The notes: generated from the sequence alone by a model not told the origin. Positions 46,038 through 53,960 are shown, numbered from the stretch's first letter. The stretch is 64,000 nucleotides of DNA from Nitrosotalea sp. (GCA_035519555.1 DATIWG010000051.1:130520-194519), one strand, 5' to 3'. A program made the numbers and translations.

Positions 46038-46129
46038 GGGCCTCTTCGCGCAAGCGCTCATCGGGGTGTCGGGGCGGACTCGCCATTCGCGGTCTCGGGC
46101 CTCTTCGCGCAAGCGCTCATCGGGGTGTC
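46038..46129. repeat. 59-bp tandem duplication spanning the 3' end of M20 copy 2 and the intergenic spacer
   Basis: GGGCCTCTTCGCGCAAGCGCTCATCGGGGTGTC occurs at 46038-46070 and identically at 46097-46129. The next ~26 nt of each unit (46071-46096; 46130-46155) are a diverged copy of each other. Confidence 0.85.
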
Positions 46130-47301
46130 CGGGCAAACTCGTCCTTGGCGGCCTTGACGCGGATGGGCTCGGCGAGGAGATCATAAGTGGTGAGGGCCAT
46201 GGTCTTGGCGGCGGCCACCATGCCCGCGCGGGCGAGCGGTTTCACCGCCGCGTCGGCGAACTCGCGCGTGTGAATCGCCATGCCGGTGGGGGCGATGGCC
46301 ACCATCGGCTGGATGGCCGGGATGATCTGACTCACGTTGCCGATGTCGGACGACCCGAGGCGGTCCGGGATGGCCTGGCCCTCGGCGAGGCCGGCCGTCT
46401 TCATGTTGGCCGCGAAGAGGTCCAGCATCACCCGGCTCGACTTCATCGGCTCGTAGACGCTGTCGTGCTGGGTGACCTTCAGGGTGCACCCGGTGGCTTT
46501 CGCCGCCCCCTCCGCGGCCGCGGTCACCCGCTTGAACAGATCCCACATCGTGTCGATCCGCGGCGCGCGCACGTAGAAGATCGCGGAGGCGTACTCCGGG
46601 ATGATGTTGGCCGCCGCACCACCGTTGGTGATGATGCCGTGAATGCGGCAGTCCGGGCGCACCTGCTGCCGTAGCATGCTGACCGCGTTGTACATCCCGA
46701 TGACGGCGTCGAGGGCGTTGACGCCCTCCCACGGGTCGGCGGAGGCGTGCGAGGCCTTGCCGGTGAACTCGAAGGTTCCTCGGACGATACCGAGCAGATC
46801 CTGGTGGAGCAGCGTGCGGTCGAAGCCGTGGATCATCATCGCGCAGTCGACGTCCTTGAAGACACCGCTCTTGATCAGCTTCACCTTCCCGCCGCCGCCC
46901 TCCTCGGCGGGGGTGCCGATCACCTGGATACGACCCTTGGGGAGCTGCGCCCGGACCGCAGCCAGGGCCGCGCCCGCGCCGGCCCCGGAGGTCGCGATCA
47001 CGTTGTGGCCGCACGCGTGACCGATGCCGGGCAGTGCGTCGTACTCGCAGAGGATGGCGATGGTGGGGCCCTCGCCCGTCTCGATGGTGCCGCGGAACGC
47101 GGTGTCCACGCCGCCCACGCCCTTCTCGATCTTGAAGCCCTGTCTGGCCAGGAAGTCGCTGAGCCAGCCACAGGCCTGCACTTCCTGGTAGGCGAGCTCC
47201 GGGTGGTCGTGGATCTGGCGGGACAGGGCCTCGAGCTCGTCGGCCAAACGGTCGACGGCCTGCGCGATGGAATCCTTGAGGGTGCTCATGACAACCTCCA
47301 C
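46117..47301 (-). CDS. M20-family amidohydrolase (copy 2 of a tandem pair)
   Basis: IHDHPELAYQEVQACGWL...CEYDALPGIGHACGHNVIA...GTPAEEGGGGK. It is collinear with copy 1 along its whole length. Confidence 0.9.
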   Translation of the reverse strand: MEVVMSTLKDSIAQAVDRLADELEALSRQIHDHPELAYQEVQACGWLSDFLARQGFKIEKGVGGVDTAFRGTIETGEGPTIAILCEYDALPGIGHACGHNVIATSGAGAGAALAAVRAQLPKGRIQVIGTPAEEGGGGKVKLIKSGVFKDVDCAMMIHGFDRTLLHQDLLGIVRGTFEFTGKASHASADPWEGVNALDAVIGMYNAVSMLRQQVRPDCRIHGIITNGGAAANIIPEYASAIFYVRAPRIDTMWDLFKRVTAAAEGAAKATGCTLKVTQHDSVYEPMKSSRVMLDLFAANMKTAGLAEGQAIPDRLGSSDIGNVSQIIPAIQPMVAIAPTGMAIHTREFADAAVKPLARAGMVAAAKTMALTTYDLLAEPIRVKAAKDEFARTPR

Positions 47302-49087: not shown

Positions 49088-50212
49088 TCAAGTCAAACCA
49101 TGGCGAAACTGCCGGGCGTGGCCGATCCGGCGACCGATCGACGGGTGGGAGTAGAAGAAAAACTCCTCGAGGGGGTGTGGATTGCGCTCGGCGAGATTCA
49201 GCCTGGCCAGACGCTCCATGGCCCCGATGAAGGGGCCGGGGTCCTGGATGGCGTCGAGCGCAAATCGGTCTGCTTCCCATTCCACGTGGCGCGACCAGGC
49301 GTTGGCCGCCGGCAGGGCCACCAGGCTCACGAGCAGCAGGACGAGGCCGAAGAAGGGGAGCCCGCCGAGGTCGGCGGGCCCGTCCAGGCCCAGCAACCGT
49401 GAGCCTAGATGGAGCGCGTGGTCGGCCATCCAGAACGTGGCCAGCGTCAGCGCGCCCTGCACGGCCAGGCCGCGGCGGATGTCTCGGTGAAGCTGATGGG
49501 CCAGCTCGTGAGCCAGCACCGCCTCGATCTCGTCTTGCGTGAACTCGCTCAGCAGCGTGTCGAAGAGAAGGATCCGCCGGTTCCGGCCGAGTCCGGTGAC
49601 CGCGGCATTGGCGGTGCGGCTCTTCCGAGACTGATCCACCACCCAGATCCCGCTCACCGGCACGCCGACACGGTCGGCCAGCGCCAGGAGCCGCGTCTCG
49701 AGCGGACTCGCCGGGAGCCGGGTGAGCCGGTAGAACAGCGGGACCAGCCAGACGGGCGTGACGAGGGCGAGCAGCGCGTAGCCGCCAAGGAAGACGACGG
49801 CGCCCCAGAGCCACCACCAGGGCGTGAGCCGCATCAGGCCGTACACGATCTCCACGGCCAACAGACCGAGGACACCACCGAGCAGGCCGGCCTTGACCAC
49901 GTCGAGCAGCCAGCGGCCGAACGACTGATGGAGCAGGCCGTAGTGGCGGGGGAGCCAGTAGCGGCCGAGCCAGGTCACCGGCAACGTGATGAGTCGGTAG
50001 CCGCCCGCTAGCACCAGCAGCTCGAGAGCGAGCTGCTGCCACCATCGCGATGTCCACTGTGCGAGCCAATCGGCTAGGATCACGCCGGCGCGGGTCTGGA
50101 CGAGGACCAGCAGGTAGGCGGCCGAGAGGGCCAGATCGACCAGCGACAGCGCGAGCTGGCGCCGGTGATAGGCGCGCGCGTGGGCCTCGTCGGACGCCGG
50201 CGACGCTTCCAT
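49088..50212 (-). CDS. M48-family zinc metalloprotease (Ste24/HtpX-like), polytopic membrane protein
   Basis: The HEXXH motif is in AVLAHELAHQLH. Downstream is EWEADRFA, with several N-terminal TM segments. I prefer the ATG at 50212 over the track start at 50281. Confidence 0.85.
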   Translation of the reverse strand: MEASPASDEAHARAYHRRQLALSLVDLALSAAYLLVLVQTRAGVILADWLAQWTSRWWQQLALELLVLAGGYRLITLPVTWLGRYWLPRHYGLLHQSFGRWLLDVVKAGLLGGVLGLLAVEIVYGLMRLTPWWWLWGAVVFLGGYALLALVTPVWLVPLFYRLTRLPASPLETRLLALADRVGVPVSGIWVVDQSRKSRTANAAVTGLGRNRRILLFDTLLSEFTQDEIEAVLAHELAHQLHRDIRRGLAVQGALTLATFWMADHALHLGSRLLGLDGPADLGGLPFFGLVLLLVSLVALPAANAWSRHVEWEADRFALDAIQDPGPFIGAMERLARLNLAERNPHPLEEFFFYSHPSIGRRIGHARQFRHGLT

Positions 50213-50263
50213 GAACAGAGTGTCCCACCGTCCCGGAGGGCCGCCAACCACCCGCGCCGTTTG

Positions 50264-50272
50264 TGCTACACT
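50264..50272 (+). promoter_or_regulatory. Candidate extended -10 promoter element (TGcTACACT) for the MoxR operon
   Basis: TGCTACACT lies 30 nt upstream of the ATG at 50302, followed by a GGGAG Shine-Dalgarno sequence. Confidence 0.3.
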
Positions 50273-50301
50273 GACCGCCAATTCACACTCAGGGAGCCGC
50301 C

Positions 50302-51216
50302 ATGTTTCAGTCCGTGGAGGACGTCCAGCAGCAGTTCAAGAACGCCCGCTATATCGCCAACCGCCGTATCTCCACCGTCGTGTTCCTCGCCGCGCGAATG
50401 GGTCGACCCGTGCTCATCGAAGGCCCGGCCGGCGTGGGCAAGACGGAGCTGGCCAAGACGCTCGCCGAGGTGACGGCGCGGCATCTGATCCGGCTGCAGT
50501 GCTACGAGGGCCTCGACGAGGGCAAGGCGCTCTACGAGTGGAAGTACGCCAAGCAGCTGCTCTACACGCAGCTGCTCCGGGAGCGGATCGGCGAGTTGAT
50601 CGCCGACGCGCCCTCGCTACCGGACGCGGTCGCGCGCATCTCCGGCCAGGACGACGCCTTCTTCTCCCACCGCTTCCTGGCCCCCCGGCCGCTGCTCCAG
50701 GCGATCGAGTCCCCGGATCCGGTGGTGCTGCTGGTCGACGAGATCGACAAGGCGGAGCCCGAGTTCGAGGCGTTCCTCCTCGAGGTCCTGTCCGACTTCC
50801 AGGTGTCGGTGCCGGAGCTGGGCACCATCCGGGCCACCCAGATCCCACTCGTGGTGCTCACGTCCAACAACGCGCGCGAGCTGTCCGATGGTCTCAAGCG
50901 TCGGTGTTTGCACCTCTTCATCGATTTCCCGCCGGCCGATGAAGAACTGGCGATCATTCGCCTGAAGGTGCCGGAGGTGTCCGAGCGCCTGGCCCAGACG
51001 GTGGTGACCGCGGTGCAGCGGATCCGCGGCCTCGAGCTGCGCAAGGCCCCTTCGATCTCCGAGAGCCTCGACTGGGCGCGCTCGCTGGTCATCCTCAACG
51101 CGGAGACGCTCGACCGCGAGCTGGTGGAGTCCACGCTCACCATGCTCGTGAAGCACGAGAAGGATCTGGACCGGGTCAAGGGCGCCCTCGACAAGGTGCT
51201 GGCCGACCTGGGCTAG
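50302..51216 (+). CDS. MoxR-family AAA+ ATPase (CoxD-like)
   Basis: Walker A is GPAGVGKT and Walker B is VLLVDEIDKA. LQCYEGLDEGKALYEWKY is characteristic of the CoxD-like MoxR subgroup. Confidence 0.9.
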   Translation: MFQSVEDVQQQFKNARYIANRRISTVVFLAARMGRPVLIEGPAGVGKTELAKTLAEVTARHLIRLQCYEGLDEGKALYEWKYAKQLLYTQLLRERIGELIADAPSLPDAVARISGQDDAFFSHRFLAPRPLLQAIESPDPVVLLVDEIDKAEPEFEAFLLEVLSDFQVSVPELGTIRATQIPLVVLTSNNARELSDGLKRRCLHLFIDFPPADEELAIIRLKVPEVSERLAQTVVTAVQRIRGLELRKAPSISESLDWARSLVILNAETLDRELVESTLTMLVKHEKDLDRVKGALDKVLADLG

Positions 51217-51221
51217 AGCCC

Positions 51222-51782
51222 ATGAGCGGGAGCTGGTCGACCCTCACCGAGTTCCGGGAGCTGTGGTTCCCGAGCCCGCGGATCCGGCTGCCCGAGCTGG
51301 GTGCGTCGGGCCCGGTCTTCATCGAGGGCGGCCGGTGCATCTCGGGAGCGCTCGGCGAGTACAGCAAGCTCTGGATCTTCGCGATGGGCCGCTGGCACTT
51401 CTACTACGTCCATCCCACCCCGCGCGATTTCTATCGCGTGACGATGCCGGAGGCGATGCCGCATCTGCTCCATCCCGGGGAAATGACGGTCGAGACGTTC
51501 CGGCAGGGCCTCTCCTACAAGGTCGTGCTGGGGCTGCGCTGCGCGGAAGGCCCGGTCCGGGTCCTGCACCTGGTGGGCGACGTGGCCGACGTCACGCGGG
51601 CGCAGGAGCGTGACGAGGAGGCGCCCGCCGGGCCCCTCGGGTGGAAGCTCAAGATGACGCACCTGATCGCCCAGGGCTCGTTCCACGGTCTCATCCGCCT
51701 CGAGGATGGGCGCCTGCATCCGATCAGTCGCGACGGCGGCGAGGACGTCTTCAAGTCCTCCTGGGTCACATTCTCCCGATGA
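51222..51782 (+). CDS. Hypothetical protein, no family recognised
   Basis: 186 aa, starting 5 nt after the moxR stop. GC3-rich codon usage resembles that of its neighbours. It has no TM segment, no signal peptide and no motif I can name. Confidence 0.6.
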   Translation: MSGSWSTLTEFRELWFPSPRIRLPELGASGPVFIEGGRCISGALGEYSKLWIFAMGRWHFYYVHPTPRDFYRVTMPEAMPHLLHPGEMTVETFRQGLSYKVVLGLRCAEGPVRVLHLVGDVADVTRAQERDEEAPAGPLGWKLKMTHLIAQGSFHGLIRLEDGRLHPISRDGGEDVFKSSWVTFSR

Positions 51783-51820
51783 CACCCGGCCACGCGAGTC
51801 GCAGCGTTCAGGCGAGCTAG

Positions 51821-53230
51821 ATGGACCAGAGAATCCTGGAGTTCATCGGCGATCTGCGGCGGGCCGAGATGCGCATCTCCCCGAGCGAGGCGCTGGACGC
51901 GCTCACCGCCTCCACCGAGATCGGGCTGGAGGACCGTGAGACGTTCAAGAGCGCCCTGGCCACCACCCTGGTCAAGGAGTCGCGAGACCTGGTGACCTTC
52001 AATCGCATCTTCGATCTGTACTTCCTCGATCTGCAGGCGCTCGGCGAGGGCCTCAAGAAGGCGCTGGGGCCCGAGGATCCCAAGATCCAGGAGATGCTCG
52101 ACCGGCTCACGTCCGAGGCCGGGATGGAGCTCGACGACCTCACCGAGCTGATGCTGAGCGGGCAGGGCAGCGACATGGAGATGGCCATTCGCCAGGAGGG
52201 CCAGGGCACCGGCCTCGAGCGGCTGATGTACTTCCTGCAGGTCGGCTACTTCTCCCGCCGCATCTACGACAAGTTCGACTGGGAGGCTATCGAGCGGGAT
52301 CTGAGCCGGATCATGCAACTGCTCGAGGCCAAGGGGCTCGATCCGGGCATGCTCGCGCGCATCCGGAACTATCTCGATCTGCGCCTCGAGGCGTTCCGGC
52401 GCATGATCCGCCAGCACGTGGAGCGCGAGCTGGAGCGTCGAGCCTTCCGCCAGGGGGAGAAGCTGACCCGCGAGGTGCTGACGGACAAGCCGCTCTTCGC
52501 GCTCTCCGCCGACGAGGTCGCCCAGATGAAGGCGGTGGTCGCGCGCCTGGCCCGCAAGATCAAGGACGCCCTCGCCCTCCGCCAGCGCCAGGAGGAGAAG
52601 GGGCGGCTCGACTCGCGCCGCACGATCCGCCAGAGCCTGCAGTACGGGGGCGTGCCGATGGAGGTGCGCTTCCGCCGGCGCCACCGCGAGAAGCCCAAGC
52701 TGATCACCCTCTGCGACGTGTCGGACTCGGTGCGCAACGCCTCGCGCTTCATGCTGCAGCTGGTGTGGAGCCTGCAGGAGTGCTTCTCGCGCGTCCGCTC
52801 GTATGTCTTCGTGTCCGAGATCGCGGAGGTCACCCAGGCCTTCAACACCTATCCGGTTGACACCGCGATCGACTGGGCGCTGAAGGCCTCCTCGGTCGAC
52901 TATCACTGCCGCTCCGACTTCGGCTACGCGTTCAGCCGCTTCGTCCGCACCGAGCTCGAGACGCTGGACCGCAAGACCACCGTGCTCATCCTGGGTGACG
53001 CCCGCAACAACTACAACGACCCGCAGGCGTGGGCCATCCGGCAGATCCGGGAGCGCGTCAAGGGGGTCATCTGGCTCAATCCGGAGGGACAGTGGGGCTG
53101 GGGCATCGGGGACAGCGTGATGCCGCTCTATACGCCCTCGTGCGACATCGTGAAGGAGTGCCGCACGGTGGGGCAGCTCGTCCAGGTCGTCGACCAGTTG
53201 GTCCATTCGTGGTGGCGCCGCGGCCGCTGA
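51821..53230 (+). CDS. VWA-domain protein, CoxE-like
   Basis: 469 aa. The N-terminal helical region is ILEFIGDLRRAEMRISPSEALDAL. The C-terminal VWA domain has the MIDAS-like CDVSDSV, plus VLILGDARNN and IWLNPE. Confidence 0.85.
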   Translation: MDQRILEFIGDLRRAEMRISPSEALDALTASTEIGLEDRETFKSALATTLVKESRDLVTFNRIFDLYFLDLQALGEGLKKALGPEDPKIQEMLDRLTSEAGMELDDLTELMLSGQGSDMEMAIRQEGQGTGLERLMYFLQVGYFSRRIYDKFDWEAIERDLSRIMQLLEAKGLDPGMLARIRNYLDLRLEAFRRMIRQHVERELERRAFRQGEKLTREVLTDKPLFALSADEVAQMKAVVARLARKIKDALALRQRQEEKGRLDSRRTIRQSLQYGGVPMEVRFRRRHREKPKLITLCDVSDSVRNASRFMLQLVWSLQECFSRVRSYVFVSEIAEVTQAFNTYPVDTAIDWALKASSVDYHCRSDFGYAFSRFVRTELETLDRKTTVLILGDARNNYNDPQAWAIRQIRERVKGVIWLNPEGQWGWGIGDSVMPLYTPSCDIVKECRTVGQLVQVVDQLVHSWWRRGR

Positions 53231-53880
53231 TCGTCCTGCTGCTGTCGGGTCTCCCGCTCGTCTCGCCGATCGCGGCCGGTCCGGCCTCCGCCGCGGAGTG
53301 CGTCGTGCTCGAGGACTTCTCCCGGGGTCCGGTCGACGCGCTCCCGCCCGACTGGAAGCCGCGCAAGGAGGAGGGGCGCTCGGTGTACTCGATCCGCGAG
53401 GAGGACGGGCGCCGGTTCCTCCACGCCGAGTCGCGGGGCCTCGGGATCCAGGCTGGTCGCGAGGTGGCCTGGGACCTCGAGACCTATCCGATCCTCGCCT
53501 GGTCGTGGCGGCCGGTCGAGTTCCCGAAGGGCTCCGACGAGCGTAGGTCCTCCACCAACGACAGCGCGGTCTCGGTCTACGCGCTGTTCCCGGGCTCGCT
53601 CGGCTCCGTGAGGAGCGTCAAGTACGTCTGGAGCCGGGTCGTGCCGGTCGGCACCCATCTCACCTCGAGCGCAGGCACTACCCAGGTGCGGGTGTTGCGC
53701 AGCGGTCCCGACAAAGCTGGGCAGTGGGTCGAGGAGATGGCCGACGTGCGGGAGGACTACCGTAAGTACTTCGGGGATGCGGCTCCCAAGCCCGCCGGGA
53801 TCGCGGTCCTCACCGACGCCGACGACACCAGGAGCAGTGCGCGGGGCGACTACGCCACCTTCCGCGTGTGCAAGCCCTGA
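53209..53880 (+). CDS. DUF3047-family secreted protein
   Basis: GTG at 53209 (or 53212) overlaps the VWA gene by 22 nt, and a signal peptide follows. LEDFSRG...PPDWKPRKEEGRSVYSI...DSAVSVYALF...KYVWS...IAVLTDADDT matches the DUF3047 pattern. Confidence 0.75.
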   Translation: MVAPRPLIVLLLSGLPLVSPIAAGPASAAECVVLEDFSRGPVDALPPDWKPRKEEGRSVYSIREEDGRRFLHAESRGLGIQAGREVAWDLETYPILAWSWRPVEFPKGSDERRSSTNDSAVSVYALFPGSLGSVRSVKYVWSRVVPVGTHLTSSAGTTQVRVLRSGPDKAGQWVEEMADVREDYRKYFGDAAPKPAGIAVLTDADDTRSSARGDYATFRVCKP

Positions 53881-53939: not shown

Positions 53940-53960
53940 CCGCCGAGCGCTTCTCGGCGG
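53940..53960 (+). terminator. Hairpin downstream of the DUF3047 gene (possible terminator)
   Basis: CCGCCGAG-CGCTT-CTCGGCGG forms an 8-bp perfect stem 60 nt after the stop at 53880. There is no U-tract. Confidence 0.35.

Follow-up and report, generated by a model that had tools for sequence, protein, structure and literature searches.

The stretch of DNA analysed here (the window, 64,000 nucleotides, contig C51:130520-194519) belongs to a metagenome-assembled genome of an uncultured soil bacterium of the Methylomirabilota ("Rokubacteria"), with a guanine-cytosine (GC) content of ca. 68% and an assembly that is 84% complete. Four of its genes, lying on the same strand, raise the question of what a protein of 186 residues, here called orf186, might be doing between a MoxR-family AAA+ ATPase and a CoxE-like VWA protein, in a gene row that ends with a member of the DUF3047 family. 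MoxR-VWA pairs such as CoxD/E, NorQ/D, CbbQ/O and CobS/T are well described, with an ATPase ring that remodels a client or loads a cofactor and a VWA protein whose metal ion-dependent adhesion site (MIDAS) acts as a tether (PMC3471820, PMC4240915, PMC9976466, PMC7159879). In the CoxD/CoxE pair of Afipia (Oligotropha) carboxidovorans pHCG3, this machinery serves the assembly of the [CuSMoO2] cluster in carbon monoxide dehydrogenase (CODH) (PMC3471820, PMC4240915). Third components of MoxR-vWA systems are likewise an established theme, including VMAP, iSTAND, FtsH and beta-propeller proteins (PMC7159879). What is new here is an undescribed, optional third gene within an otherwise known type of CoxD/E-like MoxR-VWA operon. 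The reading favoured, at a probability of about 0.5, is that orf186 would be an operon-embedded, lineage-restricted accessory partner of the MoxR-VWA pair, serving it as adaptor or modulator, or else one of its clients, a small one. The grounds for this are that the gene occurs at one position only, is coupled to moxR, diverges in step with the pair and is under strong selection.

orf186 is a real gene under strong purifying selection. Its GC content by codon position is 0.66/0.48/0.91, with the mirror open reading frame (ORF) of the opposite strand showing the inverse pattern, and the ratio of non-synonymous to synonymous substitution rates (dN/dS) within the genus lies at 0.07–0.18 at dS 0.4–0.8. 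The corresponding within-genus values are 0.007–0.037 for MoxR, 0.03–0.05 for the VWA protein, 0.15–0.37 for the DUF3047 protein and 0.22–0.31 for a divergently encoded M48 membrane protease, which places the constraint on orf186 in between, tighter than on the latter two and looser than on the pair. Among 103 full-length sequences, conservation reaches 98% or more at 67 of the 186 positions, including Cys39, His59, His81, His116 and His155, and the same alignment contains no transmembrane or hydrophobic segment. In addition, the gene was annotated by an independent gene caller on a 910-kb Joint Genome Institute (JGI) metagenome contig (L140). The original prediction had staked its case on the 186-codon frame being conserved and coding in relatives, and it is both.

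No match to orf186 was obtained in Pfam, NCBIfam, PADLOC or the sequences of the PDB, in agreement with the earlier remark that the protein carries no recognisable motif. A word-indexed search returned 113 homologues, 68–94% identical, with the exception of P0112, a frameshifted MoxR-orf186 fusion read with 49% identity to orf186; those with an organism name are all "hypothetical proteins" of the Rokubacteria/Methylomirabilota. An exhaustive profile hidden Markov model (HMM) search of 1.84 billion cluster representatives recovered only the full-length 50% cluster of orf186 itself together with fragments. Two weak matches from the HMM search, P0133 and P0134, were dismissed as noise, being RCC1-like and low-complexity repeat proteins in which one hairpin-sized stretch is matched repeatedly. 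Duplication of a neighbour was also rejected as an origin of orf186, with hhalign against the four neighbouring proteins giving probabilities of at most 0.5%. AlphaFold2 (AF2) modelling from a 17-sequence alignment predicts a beta-rich protein, one of the five models reaching a predicted local distance difference test (pLDDT) score of 70.6 and the other four 40–46. The fold search that had been proposed for orf186 gave nothing significant with this low-confidence model when run with Foldseek against the PDB, the best match having E=0.034 and template modelling (TM) scores lying at 0.16–0.27. Adding sequences to the alignment seemed unlikely to improve the model, since none of the homologues falls below 67% identity.

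Of 251 Methylomirabilota genomes, 52 carry orf186 (12 of 68 genera); these comprise 11 genera of the window's family and one genome from another family. In every genome with comparable coordinates it stands immediately 3′ of MoxR, the distance from the MoxR stop to the orf186 start being 2–9 nt in 13 of 17 measured loci and 15–27 nt in the remaining 4, and orf186 is separated from the VWA gene by 0–286 nt. Many genera have the four genes on one strand in the order MoxR-orf186-VWA-DUF3047, and this order is also intact on the JGI contig, which lacks both the M48 and the UGSC genes found near it in the window and has a GAF histidine kinase gene abutting moxR. The arrangement is thus no peculiarity of one genome, as had been anticipated, and the three spacings within it were re-derived exactly. 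As an obligate unit the four-gene module does not hold, with orf186 absent from 40 of 66 loci and DUF3047 adjacent in 49 of 69. Divergence of orf186 parallels that of its partners, with identities of 67% against 81% for MoxR and 79% for VWA in G028, and of 78% against 85% and 84% in genus g31, which fits vertical co-inheritance.

These observations bear directly on a different explanation, in which orf186 is an unrelated passenger inserted at a permissive site of the operon, expressed by read-through and with a function unconnected with MoxR-VWA. Against it, in none of the 251 genomes was a copy found at another locus, and no relative was found outside the clade. Furthermore, the start of the gene keeps close to the MoxR stop codon, mobile-element hallmarks are lacking, selection on the gene exceeds that on DUF3047 or M48, and its divergence follows that of MoxR and VWA. 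On the other side, repeated loss of orf186 has left no visible mark on the pair, the spacer directly 3′ of it is an insertion hot-spot in relatives (1–3 copies of a dispersed repeat), and one genome may hold orf186 without an intact MoxR or VWA. The passenger explanation is accordingly regarded as unlikely.

Several further points weigh against a partnership between orf186 and the pair. The gene is missing from ca. 80% of the genomes of the phylum and from 40 of the 66 readable loci: a same-strand MoxR lies upstream in 66 of 67 VWA loci, with orf186 in between in 26 of the 66 and absent in 40. Where it is absent, MoxR and VWA mostly abut (gaps of 2–26 nt) and are under similar constraint; in genera g4 and g5, the nearest relatives without orf186 (MoxR 94% identical), a spacer of 118–234 nt occupies its place. 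On a tree of MoxR plus VWA the carriers are scattered (g1, g21, g26, g32, g56, g31, g44 and the other family), requiring at least three changes of state, whether gains or losses. Rooting this tree with Afipia CoxD/E and a pair linked to Mdo (see below) gave branches too long to be useful, and an old gene with repeated loss is the simplest history. All synteny comparisons were made within one order of the phylum, where synteny extends to amidohydrolase, thiolase and OB-fold genes, so that the conserved position of orf186 alone may reflect shared ancestry. Structure and motif searches, moreover, yield no clue to its role (one of five AF2 models at or above 70, TM at most 0.27). Finally, genome G188 holds an intact orf186 beside an internally deleted MoxR, with VWA undetected, an exception treated as uncertain because a 100-N scaffold gap follows orf186; the pair may genuinely have decayed here while orf186 survived, or the assembly may be at fault.

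The details of this last case are as follows. At positions 8840-9771 of contig C34 (locus L138), moxR retains its first ca. 23 and last ca. 48 codons, joined out of frame, and orf186 is complete. The assembly of 2.4 Mb is 98% complete, and a VWA gene was not found anywhere in it.

A weak hint of coupling between orf186 and the VWA protein comes from VWA positions D347 and Q455, which track the presence of orf186 in most of 77 loci, and at one of the two, the residue typical of loci lacking orf186 has been adopted in two of three lineages that lost the gene recently. This covariation is confounded by phylogeny and has an exception in G028, where orf186 is present and the residues are E/E.

The proteins on either side of orf186 have the features expected of a remodelling pair. 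MoxR is a single AAA+ module (Pfam AAA_5, AAA and AAA_3) with a Walker A motif GPAGVGKT and a Walker B motif LLVDEID in its translation. The VWA protein matches VWA_CoxE (PF05762) over residues 242–453 (E=1e-31, 110.5 bits against a cut-off of 26.4), has an intact MIDAS motif, D299-x-S301-x-S303 (DVSDS), within a stretch, CDVSDSVRNASRF (CDVSDSV), that is invariant in an alignment of 11 orthologues, and contains no C-terminal effector or extra domain in Pfam. The family names given earlier, including Peptidase_M48 with M48_N, DUF3047 and the UGSC selenoprotein, all stand, with Pfam/NCBIfam matches above cut-off. The best NCBIfam models for the pair are MadB_ATPase (NF047784) for MoxR, at 356.5 bits against a cut-off of 475, and MadC (NF047783) for VWA, at 160.8 against 600, both thus below threshold; a literature search on "Mad" in these names found only unrelated MadB and MadC genes. 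Within the genus, amino-acid identity is 96–99% for MoxR and 95–98% for VWA at dS 0.4–0.5, with dN/dS of 0.007–0.05. MoxR orthologues are 79–99% identical across three families of the order, in many genomes without orf186, and the best 80 loci in a scan of species-representative genomes are all rokubacterial, with at least 78% identity. As judged from these comparisons, the pair is present as a single copy almost throughout the order and is inherited vertically, and its extreme constraint relative to neighbouring genes suggests an essential or many-partner function.

Records carrying other organism names deserve a remark here. Copies of the locus 81–97% identical to that of the window occur under titles of Deferrimicrobiaceae, Acidoferrum, Limnocylindria, Verrucomicrobiia, Nitrosocosmicus, Binatia and Gaiellaceae (L059, L063, L064, L083, L085, L090, L104 and L108, all SMAG assemblies). 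At least one of these records, L064, shares its coordinates with contig C41 in genome G020, which is filed in the same genus as the window, so that the NCBI titles of such SMAG assemblies look mislabelled.

The pair resembles Afipia CoxD/CoxE in belonging to the same MoxR branch (ATPase 48% identical), in its VWA_CoxE domain with intact MIDAS and in having the ATPase gene upstream. It differs in that it does not adjoin coxMSL, coxF or coxG and has an extra gene in between, and its VWA protein is 70 residues longer than CoxE and 25% identical to it over the C-terminal half only. No cox genes were found in the window region (translations, Pfam), and no molybdo-enzyme is encoded among the neighbourhood genes, as had been noted. 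Relatives encode a second MoxR paralogue, 48–52% identical to that of the window and 55–57% to Afipia CoxD, which sits in a coxS-coxL-coxM-coxD-coxE-coxF cluster. Because relatives carry this separate cluster as well, the window pair is placed, by identity and context, as a paralogue of the CoxD/CoxE branch distinct from true CoxD/CoxE, and its earlier description as an orphan is retained in that sense. That Rokubacteria almost universally carry this separate paralogue also means that the ready labelling of such pairs as CoxD/CoxE needs correcting.

The window's own genome nevertheless encodes a form-I Mo-Cu CODH on another contig (C26:77806-82606), where coxM-coxS-coxL, with the AYRCSFR loop, is followed directly by coxF/XdhC; coxD and coxE do not adjoin this cluster, and coxG lies 16 kb away. 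The pair might therefore be the functional CoxD/CoxE of this genome, maturing that CODH in trans with help from orf186 as a further maturation factor, the more so as no other CoxD/E-like pair was found in the assembly. The coxSLM-DEF cluster of relatives is not in the window's assembly, from which it may simply be missing, given the 84% completeness. Relatives do own a separate coxD-coxE there, at 55–57% identity to Afipia CoxD, and the low, half-length identity of VWA to CoxE speaks against the same task. Furthermore, the distribution of the pair does not follow that of form-I CODH: form-I CoxL orthologues occur in 77 of 251 genomes and are absent from G005, G008, G013 and G020, all with the full MoxR-orf186-VWA set, and orf186 itself shows no strong link with them (present in 22 of the 52 genomes with orf186 and in 55 of the 199 without). 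Maturation of CODH in trans is thus considered improbable.

The closest relatives found outside the phylum are pairs downstream of mdo, the gene for NDMA-dependent methanol dehydrogenase (Mdo), on plasmids of Mycobacterium dioxanotrophicus, Mycolicibacterium chubuense and Rhodococcus, with classical cox-linked pairs next at 44–48% identity. The ATPases are 56–59% identical to the window MoxR (59% for that of Mycobacterium) and the VWA proteins 37% over 267 residues, again in a non-CODH context and with NCBIfam MadB/MadC scores similar to those of the window pair and also below the cut-offs. Unlike the window, these loci have a presumptive client, Mdo, upstream and nothing between ATPase and VWA, and the actinobacterial MoxR is extended by ca. 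100 residues at its C-terminus. Since Mdo is encoded beside the nearest outside relatives of the pair, a client within the operon has a precedent in this branch. The window's genome has no Mdo orthologue, the best match to a type-III alcohol dehydrogenase being 27% identical. The plasmids of M. dioxanotrophicus (L046) and Rhodococcus sp. WAY2 (L047) share a conserved mdo-moxR-vwa trio, which in Rhodococcus lies beside a cluster for a copper membrane monooxygenase (pmoCAB-like).

A third protein encoded with a CoxD/E-branch core also recalls the MoxR-vWA ternary conflict (defence) systems of the type of Kaur, Burroughs, Iyer and Aravind (PMC7159879), among which orf186 would be the third component. 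The layout of MoxR, small protein and vWA would suit such an assignment, as would the CoxE-type N-terminal helical domain common to iSTAND-type systems (PMC7159879). In contrast to those systems, the vWA protein here has no C-terminal effector domain, orf186, VWA, DUF3047 and M48 have no PADLOC match, and the components are strongly conserved rather than diversifying (pair dN/dS 0.01–0.05), the pair being single-copy, vertical and near-universal in the order, with no sign of mobility. The third protein, in addition, is small, optional and unlike VMAP, iSTAND, FtsH or beta-propeller components. For the lack of effector domains, of diversification and of defence-model matches, this reading was rejected as extremely improbable.

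Under the favoured reading of orf186 as partner or client, MoxR and VWA would make up a housekeeping pair for AAA+/VWA remodelling, one under very tight constraint. If the pair works like CoxD/E, NorQ/D, CbbQ/O and CobS/T, the MIDAS site of VWA would dock a client onto the hexameric MoxR ring, after which the docked ATPase would drive a conformational or cofactor-insertion step. orf186, probably co-transcribed with moxR and translationally coupled to it in most carrier lineages (2–9 nt), would be an old, non-essential third component lost repeatedly while the pair stays intact, and its dispensability points to a lineage-specific task and not to the core reaction. DUF3047 would be a frequent fourth gene of the transcript, with M48 as a frequent divergent neighbour. 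MoxR-VWA pairs occur widely, and a conserved yet optional, operon-embedded third protein would offer a biochemical handle on target recognition by the CoxD/E-like branch outside CODH. The impact is modest, the organism being uncultured and the phenomenon limited to one order.

A more elaborate version of this scheme can be conceived, in which orf186 founds a new fold or family that binds the MoxR hexamer or VWA, so that the housekeeping pair would become a tripartite machine with specificity for a new client. The protein would then possibly act in metal handling or substrate presentation through Cys39, His59, His81, His116 and His155, each loss would mark a client given up, and together with M48 the whole could form a Rokubacteria-specific AAA+/adaptor/protease system for maturation or quality control. 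So specific a combination is rather doubtful.

Table 1. Features of the locus (positions counted from the first nucleotide of the window)
Feature	Position	Strand	Basis and remarks
M48 (Ste24/HtpX-like) membrane zinc protease	49088..50212	-	Pfam and HELAH motif; probable ATG start 50212
Divergent intergenic region M48/MoxR	50213..50301	.	Conserved TGTGCTACACT and CCAATTCAC; MoxR Shine-Dalgarno GGGAGCC
MoxR-family AAA+ ATPase, CoxD-like (APE2220-type)	50302..51216	+	Pfam AAA_5/AAA; stop TAG
orf186, lineage-restricted, soluble, predicted beta-rich	51222..51782	+	5 nt past MoxR; coding signal, conservation
CoxE-like VWA protein, helical N-terminal region then VWA domain	51821..53230	+	Pfam VWA_CoxE; 38 nt past orf186
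DUF3047 protein, predicted secreted, beta-jelly-roll model	53209..53880	+	GTG start; 22-nt overlap with VWA stop
8-bp GC hairpin 3′ of DUF3047	53940..53960	+	Sequence present, no U-tract

The fourth gene of the row matches DUF3047 (PF11249) with E=2e-36 and 125.8 bits against a cut-off of 27. A longer alternative ORF, starting from 53029, was judged non-coding upstream of ca. 53200 because the high-GC3 frame switches at that point. The translation has a Sec-type signal-peptide-like N-terminus, and the AF2 model is a beta-jelly-roll with a pLDDT of 94.5. The structural comparison suggested earlier proved informative for this protein, with Foldseek matches to CFAP20, the beta-domain of glucuronyl C5-epimerase, carbohydrate-binding modules (CBM) 16, 61 and 8, and GH11 (TM 0.45–0.59, E down to 6e-7). 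The DUF3047 protein is therefore modelled as a secreted, CBM- or lectin-like beta-jelly-roll, by which the family gains a fold assignment. Its gene lies directly 3′ of VWA on the same strand in the 49 of 69 loci counted above, often overlapping the VWA stop, and is not beside VWA in family f4 and several genera.

The divergent gene upstream encodes a protein with matches to Peptidase_M48 (PF01435; E=9e-32, 110.9 bits) and Peptidase_M48_N (PF16491; E=4e-17, 63.1 bits). Whether it and the downstream UGSC gene accompany the module had been raised as a question. Of 56 loci whose flanks reach far enough, 46 have a divergent M48 gene upstream of MoxR, mostly less than 130 nt away. The UGSC gene appears in the downstream flank of only 33 of 51 loci and is an unrelated, variable neighbour. 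The adjacency of DUF3047 and M48 to the pair is suggestive of linkage, the counts for all three neighbours again coming from loci within the one order.

From this association a split AAA+/adaptor/protease system could be proposed, in which MoxR-VWA feeds or unfolds substrates for M48 and orf186 or DUF3047 acts as regulator or substrate. The frequent divergent arrangement, with conserved elements in the short intergenic region, and its extension to a second family (f4) are in its favour. Against it, M48 is missing at 10 of 56 loci and on the JGI contig L140, where the histidine kinase gene abuts MoxR, and in f4 an MFS transporter gene intervenes between M48 and MoxR. M48 also evolves far faster than the pair (dN/dS 0.22–0.31 against 0.01–0.05), and the adjacency sits in a generally syntenic region of one order. 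A dedicated protease system is, on this balance, improbable as well.

The control region between M48 and moxR carries conserved elements of its own. The M48 ORF reaches a TTG at 50281; alignment of the upstream region puts the start at ATG 50212 instead, which is probably the true one and leaves a divergent intergenic region of 89 nt. In a footprint alignment of the 125 nt 5′ of moxR from 19 loci of ca. 10 genera, TGTGCTACACT (50261-50271) stands out as a phylogenetic footprint, its extended -10-like core TGnTA(C/A/G)A(C/A)T kept and its flanks drifting; the CCAATTCAC box and the GGAGCC Shine-Dalgarno sequence are likewise preserved. Of the promoter candidate TGcTACACT named in the original prediction, the conserved footprint thus stands, and a generic sigma-70 scan of the region found no promoter. 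Similarly, the hairpin said to follow the module is there as sequence, CCGCCGAG-CGCTT-CTCGGCGG at 53940-53960. It was not flagged in a terminator scan, has no T-tract, and the folding stability of its region resembles that of shuffled sequence (z=0.49).

The spacer 5′ of VWA is a site of repeat insertion in relatives. A dispersed repetitive extragenic palindromic (REP)-like element of ca. 55–60 nt, of the form CCCCGATGAG-(GC hairpin)-CGAAGAGGCC(AAACCGCCAAACC), has ca. 20 copies in the genome, with compensatory variants of the hairpin such as GCGC-TT-GCGC, GCCCC-AAA-GGGGC and GGCC-GACG-GGCC. Considered as a hammerhead ribozyme, the spacer repeat (CCGAUGAG-hairpin-CGAAG) was rejected, with no Rfam match at the gathering score or at E<=10 and a core deviating from the consensus. 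One to three tandem copies lie 5′ of VWA, past orf186 or MoxR, in L015, L016, L018, L022, L024, L028, L029, L037 and L041; the 38-nt spacer of the window is free of the element. Elsewhere in the window, at 46038-46155, two REP-like copies between two M20 amidohydrolase genes form a 59-bp tandem duplication.

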